Below the pieces are notes generated by a model. The model did not search any database. It was not told the DNA's origin and saw only the letters and a list, made by a program, of their open reading frames with translations. Shown piece by piece: positions 1,298 to 2,548 of a stretch of 2,817 nt of DNA (the stretch's first letter is position 1; each line of letters starts with the position of its first letter). The position numbers were made by a program, and so were the translations under genes. This DNA is from a virus (lineage: Duplodnaviria > Heunggongvirae > Uroviricota > Caudoviricetes), in the IMG/VR virus record IMGVR_UViG_2529292981_000044. One strand, 5' to 3'.

Positions 1298-1669
1298 GTG
1301 ACTGAATTAACCAAAGAGAAATTAATCGAAGAAGCCAAATTAAAAATAGCGATTGCGAAATGCTACCCCAATTCAGGGATGGCACGGGTAGAGGGCGAGT
1401 TATTCAAAATTGCACTGGCATCGCTGGAAGCAGAACCGATAGCGTGGGAATGCGGTGAAAACATAATCCTGTTTAACCCTGACACAGTTGAAGCATACGC
1501 AAAACGTGCGGAAATATCACCTAAACCACTATTCTCCGCGCCGCCAGCGCTGGTAGTGCCTGATAAGTTGCCGCGTGAATACAGAAACGGTTGGCCTCTT
1601 GCGTATAGTGATTATGCTGAAGGCTGGAACGACTGCCGCGAAGCCATGCTTCAGGGAGATAAATCATGA
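1298..1669 (+). CDS. Hypothetical prophage protein, 123 aa; resembles (from memory) the N-terminal portion of Ea22-like / DUF551-associated lambdoid accessory proteins
   Basis: The frame opens after TGA 1292-1294; the first start is GTG 1298, with the next in-frame ATG at 1379 (Met28). Stop TGA 1667-1669 overlaps the next ATG (ATGA). The motifs PIAWECGENIIL, PLFSAPPALVVPD and AEGWNDCREAMLQG resemble the conserved 'VAW ... APPAPVVPD ... GYNxCRxAML' stretch I associate with Ea22-like phage proteins; unverified. Confidence 0.6.
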   Translation: MTELTKEKLIEEAKLKIAIAKCYPNSGMARVEGELFKIALASLEAEPIAWECGENIILFNPDTVEAYAKRAEISPKPLFSAPPALVVPDKLPREYRNGWPLAYSDYAEGWNDCREAMLQGDKS

Positions 1670-2016
1670 TTAATCGTATCAAGCTGGAGCACATCCTCGA
1701 ATATGCCAGGCAGCAGAGGCATATTGGTCAGCATTGTAAAATTCCACCAGGAGATATGGTTGAAATCATGGAGATTGCCATGCGCAAGGCTGGCAACTCT
1801 CCGGTAACTCCGGATGGTTGGATAAGCTGTAGTGAGCGAATGCCGGAGAAATACGATTTCGATATCTGGGTATTCTCTCCATCCAGAGGTGTTCTTGACG
1901 GGCTACAGTGGGATGGCTCGATGTTTACTGATGATGAATATCAGTTCGTTATTCATGACGCCACGCATTGGATGAGAAAAGTATATCCAGCAGCACCGCA
2001 GCAGGATGGTGAATGA
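1666..2016 (+). CDS. Hypothetical prophage protein, 116 aa, with a DUF551-like C-terminal region
   Basis: ATG 1666 with AGGGAGA (1653-1659) 6 nt upstream, ATGA overlap with the upstream gene; stop TGA 2014-2016. The segment DGWISCSERMPEKYDFDIWVF...QWDG matches my recollection of the DUF551 signature (W-I-S-x-x-D/E-R-L/M-P-E followed by hydrophobic strands); family call from memory. Confidence 0.65.
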   Translation: MINRIKLEHILEYARQQRHIGQHCKIPPGDMVEIMEIAMRKAGNSPVTPDGWISCSERMPEKYDFDIWVFSPSRGVLDGLQWDGSMFTDDEYQFVIHDATHWMRKVYPAAPQQDGE

Positions 2017-2102
2017 TGCCGCCAGTTAAAGTTGTGATTATCACTTTGGTGATGATAGTGATTGCGAGAATCATGTCTGGTGAAATTGTGTGGATATGGT
2101 AA
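2013..2102 (+). CDS. Unannotated 29-codon hydrophobic small ORF (MMPPVKVVIITLVMIVIARIMSGEIVWIW); candidate leader peptide or small membrane/toxin-like peptide
   Basis: ATG-ATG at 2013-2018 overlaps the upstream stop (ATGA at 2013-2016), with AGGA (2003-2006) 6 nt upstream; in-frame to TAA 2100-2102. 13 of 29 residues are Val/Ile and only 1 is Leu. Below the apparent length cutoff of the ORF track. Coding status uncertain because the same bases form GTGAT repeats. Confidence 0.3.
   Translation: MMPPVKVVIITLVMIVIARIMSGEIVWIW
2034..2062. repeat. Cluster of GTGAT pentamers including a GTGAT-t-ATCAC palindrome; possible protein-binding site array
   Basis: GTGAT at 2034-2038, its inverted copy ATCAC at 2040-2044 (palindrome centred on T2039), and direct copies at 2049-2053 and 2058-2062; related GGTGA at 2008-2012 and 2079-2083. 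Read directly from the sequence. Confidence 0.3.
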
Positions 2103-2132
2103 TGGCTAAGGCAGCAGCAGAGCGCAACTAAC

Positions 2133-2160
2133 AATCCTCGCACTCGCGGGGATTTCTTTT
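2133..2160 (+). terminator. Intrinsic (rho-independent) terminator, first of a tandem pair
   Basis: Stem AATCCTCGC (2133-2141) / loop ACTC / GCGGGGATT (2146-2154), 9 bp with one G-U pair, immediately followed by the U-tract TTTCTTTT (2153-2160). Confidence 0.6.
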
Positions 2161-2165
2161 ATCTG

Positions 2166-2190
2166 AACTCGCTACGGCGAGTTTTGTTTT
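2166..2190 (+). terminator. Intrinsic terminator, second of the tandem pair, abutting the next gene's RBS
   Basis: Perfect 7-bp stem AACTCGC (2166-2172) / loop TACG / GCGAGTT (2177-2183), followed by TTTTGTTTT (2182-2190). GGAG of the downstream gene begins at 2193. Confidence 0.6.
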
Positions 2191-2203: not shown

Positions 2204-2548
2204 ATGTCAGATTTGGCTATGAAGGTTTTGAAATGGCAATCAACTGGCGATGTCGGCATCAGTAGCGCAACTCTTGCCTCAATCGCATGTGGCCTGAAAA
2301 AGAATATCTATGGTCATGGCTTCGGTGCTCCACATGACGCAGCCGATTTCAGACGATGCGTTGCACTTGTTGAGCAGATTCCAGAAATCAGAGATTCATT
2401 CGACAAGGTTGCAAAGCGCGTTCCGGCATTCAAAGGAATCCTCAACGAATGGGATTCCCTCGTTGCTCTGTTGAAGTCTGAAATGAAGATACACGGAAAC
2501 AAAGCACCAGAGACTTACAGAAGAATCAGCGAGCTACGCAAGGACTAA
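2204..2548 (+). CDS. Hypothetical protein, 114 aa, unknown function; terminator-insulated cargo (moron-like) gene
   Basis: ATG 2204 with GGAG (2193-2196) at 7-nt spacing; stop TAA 2546-2548. Preceded by tandem terminators and followed by hairpins and a U-tract. Translation MSDLAMKVLKWQSTGDVGISSATLASIACGLKKNIYGHGFGAPHDAADFRRC... matches no family I recognise. Confidence 0.7.
   Translation: MSDLAMKVLKWQSTGDVGISSATLASIACGLKKNIYGHGFGAPHDAADFRRCVALVEQIPEIRDSFDKVAKRVPAFKGILNEWDSLVALLKSEMKIHGNKAPETYRRISELRKD

Follow-up and report, generated by a model that had tools for sequence, protein, structure and literature searches.

A GTGAT repeat cluster in the exo-xis region of a lambdoid prophage reads as codons of a conserved 28-codon gene for a predicted membrane micropeptide

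The repeat cluster and the small open reading frame

The stretch of DNA considered here (the window; 2,817 nucleotides of the IMG/VR record IMGVR_UViG_2529292981_000044, a virus of the Caudoviricetes) carries a cluster of GTGAT repeats inside an unannotated gap between a gene with a DUF551 domain and a gene for a 114-residue protein. An earlier note on this DNA had left it undecided whether these repeats are protein-binding sites or part of the coding sequence of a small hydrophobic open reading frame (ORF). With a probability of roughly 85%, the comparisons described below point to a real, conserved and mostly unannotated 28-codon gene for a predicted membrane micropeptide, of which the repeats would be codons. 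The argument turns on three features of the locus:

2016..2102, + strand: small gene of 28 codons plus TAA, product MPPVKVVIITLVMIVIARIMSGEIVWIW; conserved ORF, predicted hydrophobic single-pass membrane peptide
2034..2062, + strand: repeat cluster with three copies of GTGAT and one of ATCAC; codon pairs Val-Ile, Val-Met, Val-Ile and Ile-Thr of the small ORF
1990..2015, + strand: linker and translation-initiation region GCAGCACCGCAGCAGGATGGTGAATG; Shine-Dalgarno (SD)-like AGGA/GGTGA, tail of the DUF551 gene, and stop codon TGA over ATGATG

Reading of the sequence and a pattern scan found the motifs where the earlier note had seen them: GTGAT on the + strand at 2034-2038, 2049-2053 and 2058-2062, its inverse ATCAC at 2040-2044 (which together with the first GTGAT forms GTGATTATCAC, 2034-2044), and GGTGA at 2008-2012 and 2079-2083. 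All four GTGAT/ATCAC copies, as well as the GGTGA at 2079, lie in phase 0 of the ORF starting at 2013. The GTGAT copies read GTG-ATT, GTG-ATG and GTG-ATT, ATCAC reads ATC-ACT (Ile-Thr), and the GGTGA at 2079 reads GGT-GAA (Gly-Glu) in the frame of the small ORF. The GGTGA at 2008 is likewise GGT-GAA (Gly-Glu), here as the final codon pair of the DUF551 gene, and since the SD-like purine run covers this position, the copy belongs to the ribosome-binding/coupling linker. The peptide contains only three Val-Ile or Val-Met dipeptides, each of them written as a GTGAT, so that three copies are the maximum possible. The Val-Ile runs that had been ascribed to a 29-codon ORF are therefore found as Val-Ile and Val-Met pairs; as to the length, a start at the additional in-frame ATG at 2013 would give 29 residues, but the family as a whole retains only the ATG at 2016, which makes 28 codons the conserved form.

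A conserved family of hydrophobic 28-codon ORFs

Degenerate pattern scans of IMG/VR recovered the small ORF at 81 loci, the window included, in 30 distinct DNA sequences that encode 24 peptides, and sampling via the upstream linker alone added two further peptide variants (26). Each variant spans exactly 28 codons from the ATG at 2016, is free of internal stops, and ends with Ile, Val or Leu followed by Trp and the stop codon. Two subfamilies can be told apart, ...VIARIMSGEIGWIW (AR, to which the window belongs) and ...AICQLISMTGYGIW (CQ). Residues 1-10 are almost invariant despite synonymous codon differences; this includes residues 6-10, nearly invariant even though they were unconstrained in both types of search, and in the linker-only sample MPPVK itself was found in all members but one, which carries MPQVK. 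As a negative control, the same pattern was run on species-representative genomes, where it gave 11 matches, one true (Pseudocitrobacter vendiensis) and ten arising by chance; none of these ten is hydrophobic and four contain internal stops.

The neighbouring genes name Enterobacter hormaechei/cloacae, Citrobacter freundii, Cedecea and E. coli as hosts, Pseudocitrobacter was also assigned, and Salmonella was seen only in clusters of neighbouring genes. Close relatives in E. coli take the form of a 141-nucleotide module (1990-2130) present in 222 of 5426 complete genomes, that of the O157:H7 strain TW14359 among them, behind upstream genes that vary (DUF551, Ead/Ea22-like, dATP/dGTP pyrophosphohydrolase or hypothetical). 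A tblastn search with three variants returned the same 10 phage records only (including 1717, 2851, Stx2a_F349, WGPS4, WGPS8, E212 and EC.P3) and no plasmid match. In the CPS-53 prophage of K-12, yfdT comes immediately after yfdS (DUF551) and no small ORF separates the two, and phage N15 carries no copy, though the gene 3' of the small ORF at locus L022 clusters with N15 gp35. At L003 and L009 the first ATG has been lost and the second retained. Two further copies lack an ATG altogether, L059 (GTGCCGTCA, with a possible GTG start and the change P3S) and L060 (ATTCCGCCA, without a standard start); either of them may be in decay or may start from a non-canonical codon.

How strongly is the peptide constrained? 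Over codons 6-26, the part left free by the search pattern, the ratio of nonsynonymous to synonymous substitution rates (dN/dS, or omega) lies between 0.09 and 0.22 in unsaturated pairs. The individual comparisons, with pS and pN the proportions of synonymous and nonsynonymous differences, were:

window against L010: pS 0.51, pN 0.07, omega 0.09
window against L015: omega 0.12
window against L028: omega 0.17
window against L031: omega 0.22
window against L023: pS 0.90, pN 0.18

Judged from these sequence comparisons, the small ORF is under purifying selection at the amino-acid level. The repeats follow a different course. In sequences at least 93% identical to the window, GTG is used at 20 of 21 Val-[Ile/Met] sites; in the 23 diverged sequences it is used at 11 of 39 (28%), the overall share of GTG among valine codons being 29 of 126 (23%). 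Every one of these 23 carries at most a single GTGAT and retains the valines by way of GTA, GTT and GTC. Even within E. coli, L009 differs by two synonymous changes, one of which (GTG>GTT) removes a GTGAT, and L008 has lost the ATCAC. Because the diverged members keep the valines, with zero or one GTGAT and with GTG at its background rate, the cluster of GTGAT, ATCAC and GGTGA is best read as a by-product of coding with no function of its own, arising where a predicted transmembrane segment rich in Val, Ile and Met has its valines written as GTG. The earlier note had proposed that homologues be compared, and had singled out repeats missing from otherwise conserved loci as evidence against binding sites; the comparison turned up exactly this pattern, synonymous variation together with loss of the repeats, so that the coding half of its alternative stands, now as a 28-codon gene at 81 loci, and the operator or iteron half is not supported.

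The predicted product is hydrophobic throughout the family. The grand average of hydropathy (GRAVY) ranges from 1.46 to 1.76 across variants, and in each of them hydropathy over 17 residues (Kyte-Doolittle) peaks at 2.36-2.73, a stretch long enough to span a membrane. After K5, members of the CQ subfamily continue with 23 uncharged residues. In the AR subfamily, which includes the window, R18 and E23 fall within the hydrophobic stretch, which renders its topology less certain. No significant periodicity at 100 degrees, as expected of a conserved helical face, was detected (permutation p = 0.34). From the hydrophobicity we infer a single-pass inner-membrane peptide.

Three variants of the peptide had no match in sequence searches of Pfam, PHROGs, NCBIfam, PADLOC and PDB. 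The small ORF is not annotated in RefSeq, nor in the phage records that contain it. The 29-residue form has been deposited as a 'hypothetical protein' (BBC51094.1 and others) and occurs on at least 1000 contigs; of the 28-residue forms, none of the seven looked up was present in a collection of ~15 billion proteins that does contain 29-residue forms. The 28-residue forms fall under the size that common gene callers report. A literature search on the peptide string, on DUF551 and on exo-xis combined with transmembrane yielded no description of the small ORF, and the passages checked in two exo-xis papers do not mention a 28-residue hydrophobic ORF.

Several points weigh against reading the small ORF as a translated gene whose product acts at the membrane and whose codons fully account for the repeats. 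Since third codon positions coincide, dN/dS is unable to separate the sense frame from antisense frame -1, and the latter is open across the 87 nucleotides in 28 of the 30 variants. Most family members were collected with patterns requiring MPPVK...(I/V)W and a stop, which means that the true sequence range of the family is under-sampled. As no family, structure or function was matched, the membrane-effector role is a putative one that draws on composition. The literature search found neither ribosome-profiling nor proteomic data, and the peptide string in no paper; translation is predicted from sequence. Finally, random back-translation of the peptide produced three GTGAT copies in 1.0% of trials with the codon usage of the window and in 1.6% with uniform usage, and the odds would be about 5% if GTG made up 37% of valine codons, as in E. 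coli usage. Having GTG at all three sites is hence only 1-5% probable given the peptide, a mild excess noted post hoc, and a weak, lineage-specific effect at the DNA or RNA level in the E. coli variant is formally conceivable.

The linker, probable translational coupling and the genomic setting

The stretch 1990..2015 encodes the conserved tail of the upstream protein (..AAPQQDGE and the stop). Nearly all of the 44 distinct upstream proteins end in ...P(E/A)(P/A)PQQ(D/E)(G/V)(E/K), and despite their diversity the upstream stop lies two nucleotides before the ATG (TGATG) in nearly all loci. In the window, the stop/start sequence is GAATGATG, which also yields the second in-frame ATG at 2013. 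An SD-like purine run is present in 35 of 35 distinct upstream contexts (consensus GGAGGTGAAGTGATG, window AGGATGGTGAATGATG), and downstream genes often start at TAATG or GTGA, over the stop of the small ORF. As far as sequence can tell, the arrangement is that of a gene coupled in translation to its upstream neighbour. A programmed frameshift that would fuse the DUF551 protein to the peptide was considered and rejected: no slippery heptamer precedes GAA TGA, and the same linker stands before many unrelated genes.

A related linker, GCAGGAGGTGAAGTGATG, encodes the tail ..QQEVK and a stop, includes a strong SD sequence (GGAGGTGA) and runs into the next ATG. At least 120 IMG/VR contigs contain this linker, and the genes that come after it are dozens of unrelated ones (loci L097-L212); among the matches listed, the MPPVK peptide makes up 15 of the 122 complete ORFs after this linker. 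The linker thus looks like a shared boundary sequence that couples translation and could, in addition, be a site of homologous recombination for the shuffling of accessory genes. Boundary sequences of this sort have been described in lambdoid phages.

Other tiny hydrophobic ORFs start from the linker ATG in the same cassette slot (L101, L109, L114, L142, L136, L201, L127, L110, L121 and L209), for example:

slot ORF MDWPTAFSIVGCAFAIAWLFRS, 22 residues
slot ORF MNWPEAFTAVGVAIAVAFILYSLFRWG, 27 residues
slot ORF MSELVMIAYFIFLGFIFWVFARYL, 24 residues
slot ORF MNNILFIALMSIPYILNAIASII, 23 residues
slot ORF MNKCNALLYAMVIGFGLVAGIRVYITWESLINLAWSAIRG, 40 residues

At L028, MPNPFDFVMFVLLTWGVIDQAGWTW starts at the stop of the MPPVK ORF. 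These sequences suggest a wider unannotated repertoire of micropeptide cassettes.

Megablast placed the window among E. coli lambdoid prophages. Positions 1407-2817 match the Stx2-converting phages 1717, 2851 and Stx2a_F349 (Pankowvirus) at their int-proximal end with 99.9% identity, and positions 1-1845 are 99.8% identical to a different O157:H7 prophage (NZ_CP038380), 1407-1845 being the stretch common to both source prophages. Since the two parts match different prophages and no record in the collections of complete E. coli genomes and of phages covers at least 80% of the window, the window is a recombinant arrangement that is absent from those collections. Its setting is the exo-xis accessory region on the pL side of an Stx2 lambdoid prophage. 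In annotated records the genes run in one direction, from Ea22-like and hypothetical genes through DUF551, the unannotated gap and the 114-residue protein to the AlpA/Xis-like regulator, after which comes a convergent integrase gene. The neighbours within the window are:

1666..2016, + strand: upstream gene with a DUF551 domain, 116 residues (PF04448, E = 4.9e-10; annotation); stop codon overlapping the small-ORF start
2204..2548, + strand: next gene, 114 residues, phrog_1229, function unknown (profile match and annotation); widely shared downstream module
2626-2817, + strand: AlpA/Xis-like regulator (annotation)

In Stx2a_F349, the integrase and AlpA/Xis-like genes converge, with an overlap of 20 bp at the 3' end of the latter (at 2798-2817 of the window and on past its end; 3892-3911 of L001). 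The xis and int genes of lambda, by contrast, are co-directional. The exo-xis region of lambda and Stx phages influences both the lysis-lysogeny decision and the induction of toxin prophages, and one account describes it as under-characterised; there, DUF551 is presented as a portable domain at the C-terminus, one that Ea22 variant 2 carries as well (PMC10834534).

Alternative readings and the possible role of the peptide

Could the small ORF instead be the leader peptide of an attenuator, given that the earlier note speaks of an attenuator-like module? Its translation would then decide whether the terminator at 2133-2160 forms, and with it how far the downstream and AlpA/Xis-like genes are expressed. 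What lies between and beyond the ORF is the following:

2100..2129, + strand: ATGGCTAAGGCAGCAGCAGAGCGCAACTAA, truncated 5' end (8 codons) of a 112-residue gene (MAKAAAERKAAQRAR...); overlaps the small-ORF stop (TAATG)
2133..2160, + strand: first intrinsic terminator-like hairpin with T run; downstream mosaic module
2165..2190, + strand: second, tandem terminator-like hairpin with T run; downstream mosaic module

The short ORF does end only 31 nucleotides before two tandem terminator-like hairpins (1900-2817 contains five such hairpins against 0.5 expected), and 12 nucleotides within it (2060-2071) are complementary at 10 of 12 positions (83%) to the 5' arm of the first terminator (2134-2145), a potential antiterminator and the only candidate for such a pairing. 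However, the adjacency is the product of mosaic joining rather than a conserved unit. The window is identical to L016 and L058 through GAGCGCAA and then diverges. The 112-residue gene (MAKAAAERKAAQ...) is intact in L009, L016, L031 and L058, and in the window its truncated start (2100-2129, as an ORF nine codons, MAKAAAERN and a stop) is joined to the terminator module, which puts the mosaic junction at the homology breakpoint, ~2124-2129. The terminator module (from ~2129) occurs in ~2500 E. coli genomes and the ORF module in 222, 216 of these with a match covering at least 80%, and in most diverged copies what comes next after the small ORF is an overlapping gene instead of a terminator. Both the minimum free energy (MFE) and centroid folds of 2000-2200 keep the two terminator hairpins and leave the 2060-2071/2134-2145 pairing unused; the MFE fold contains no antiterminator, the z-score is only -1.95, and Rfam returned no match. 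That the peptide itself is under purifying selection argues in the same direction. Because the terminators belong to a separate mosaic module, the attenuator reading fails, and we regard it as improbable. The same joint to the terminator module is seen at L158, where there is no small ORF. A third terminator-like hairpin lies at 2585-2610, ahead of the AlpA-like gene, and the prophage Pas small RNAs are located elsewhere, near late genes. The terminators presumably limit read-through towards xis/int unless transcription from pL is antiterminated.

Equally improbable is that the stretch is a recombination linker or translational-coupling spacer between cassettes, with an incidental hydrophobic frame and no functional peptide. 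Very short ORFs are often spurious, this one is bounded by mosaic junctions, and the region immediately upstream of it is the generic linker that precedes dozens of unrelated genes. Yet a mere spacer would hardly hold to exactly 28 codons, a near-invariant N-terminal decapeptide and uniform hydrophobicity at 55-60% nucleotide identity with synonymous sites saturated; moreover, many cassettes are joined by the linker alone, which implies that the small ORF is not needed for coupling.

A shade less credible still is the reading with which the question began, in which a DNA-binding protein of the phage (e.g. the DUF977 winged-helix or AlpA/Xis-like protein) would recognise the GTGAT copies in the manner of an operator or iterons, these sites being superimposed on the ORF or even the reason for it. 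As bare DNA the cluster is non-random: four GTGAT/ATCAC copies within 29 nucleotides were reached in 0 of 2000 dinucleotide-preserving shuffles, and the window as a whole holds 13 GTGAT on both strands against 6.45 +/- 2.39 expected, a count attained by one of 200 shuffles. The palindrome GTGATTATCAC and the use of GTG at all three possible sites point the same way, and like an iteron or operator array the cluster has a 5-mer repeated several times within 30 bp, once in inverted orientation. Unlike such arrays, its copies are in-phase codon pairs that are lost in diverged homologues, where GTG falls to background, and one of them disappears by a synonymous change even in E. coli. The spacing is irregular, 15 and 9 nucleotides, both multiples of three and in no helical register, and the cluster sits within a tightly packed co-directional operon rather than at a promoter or origin; the single promoter-like match in 1900-2817 is weak, lies on the minus strand (2079-2052) and compares with 1.1 expected by chance. 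For scans of this kind, the lesson is to establish the codon phase of short-repeat clusters in hydrophobic coding sequence before taking them for binding sites.

That the real gene is the antisense ORF (2143-1949, minus strand, 64 residues), with the plus-strand ORF as its shadow, can be set aside as scarcely credible in spite of the existence of that ORF in the window and of the open frame -1, since a T at codon position 2 gives antisense codons that start with A and are never stops, its ends vary by locus to give ORFs of 2-118 residues or none, its start would lie in a terminator hairpin, and the neighbouring genes are all on the + strand.

If the small ORF is a gene, as we favour, what might its product resemble? 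Two groups of peptides come to mind by size and composition, the small inner-membrane regulators and the type I toxins, although the peptide is a demonstrated member of neither. KdpF, AcrZ, MgtS, MgtR, PmrR and CydX are enterobacterial small inner-membrane proteins. They share with the peptide a length of ~30 residues, a single hydrophobic helix (in the peptide a predicted one) and a tendency to be missed by annotation, and they are thought to act by binding larger membrane proteins, which makes them the best analogy for how it might work. They differ in that no sequence relationship exists (no Pfam, NCBIfam or PDB match) and in that the peptide gene is phage-borne and probably translationally coupled within an early accessory operon. 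Type I toxin peptides, such as Hok, TisB, Ibs, ShoB, Ldr and DinQ, are likewise hydrophobic, shorter than 50 residues and common on mobile elements and prophages. For the small ORF, consensus scans, which are weak evidence either way, showed no dedicated promoter and no signal of an antisense RNA beyond the one chance-level promoter-like match on the minus strand, and no antitoxin RNA of Rfam matched in its region; with its start overlapping the upstream stop, it would be expressed as part of an operon.

The leader attenuators trpL, pheL and hisL also place a short ORF upstream of an intrinsic terminator, but the present locus has no conserved alternative pairing, no conserved adjacency of ORF and terminator and no run of regulatory codons, and its peptide is under purifying selection. 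The small ORF and the known exo-xis genes are presumably transcribed early, from pL. These genes (orf60a, orf61, orf63, orf73, ea22 and ea8.5), reviewed in the account cited above (PMC10834534), occupy the same region between exo and xis/int and encode soluble proteins of ~60-180 residues, unlike the 28-residue hydrophobic ORF, the upstream neighbour of which shares DUF551 with Ea22 variant 2.

A mechanism can be sketched along these lines. Ribosomes terminating on the DUF551 gene at the TGA (2014-2016) would re-initiate at the overlapping ATG, aided by the SD-like AGGA/GGTGA located 4-13 nucleotides upstream. The resulting peptide would have MPPVK as its short N-terminus and, after it, ~23 residues that are for the most part apolar, the last two being IW. 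It could then enter the inner membrane as a single helix and act there on a membrane component of the host or the phage. More tentatively, and on balance rather doubtfully, the MPPVK...IW peptide may be a functional early phage micropeptide acting on the membrane or on one of the host's inner-membrane proteins, one of several unannotated hydrophobic cassettes of 22-40 residues shuffled between lambdoid prophages via the shared linker.

For the biology of these prophages, the finding would mean that phages of the Stx2c type (1717 and 2851), together with many enterobacterial prophages, carry a conserved 28-codon gene in their exo-xis region, whose product is a cheap and testable candidate for a membrane-acting phage micropeptide. 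Should the proposed role hold true, the MPPVK...IW peptide would bear on the lysis-lysogeny decision, on superinfection exclusion, on the physiology of the host or on the induction of the prophage and, through it, the output of Shiga toxin.

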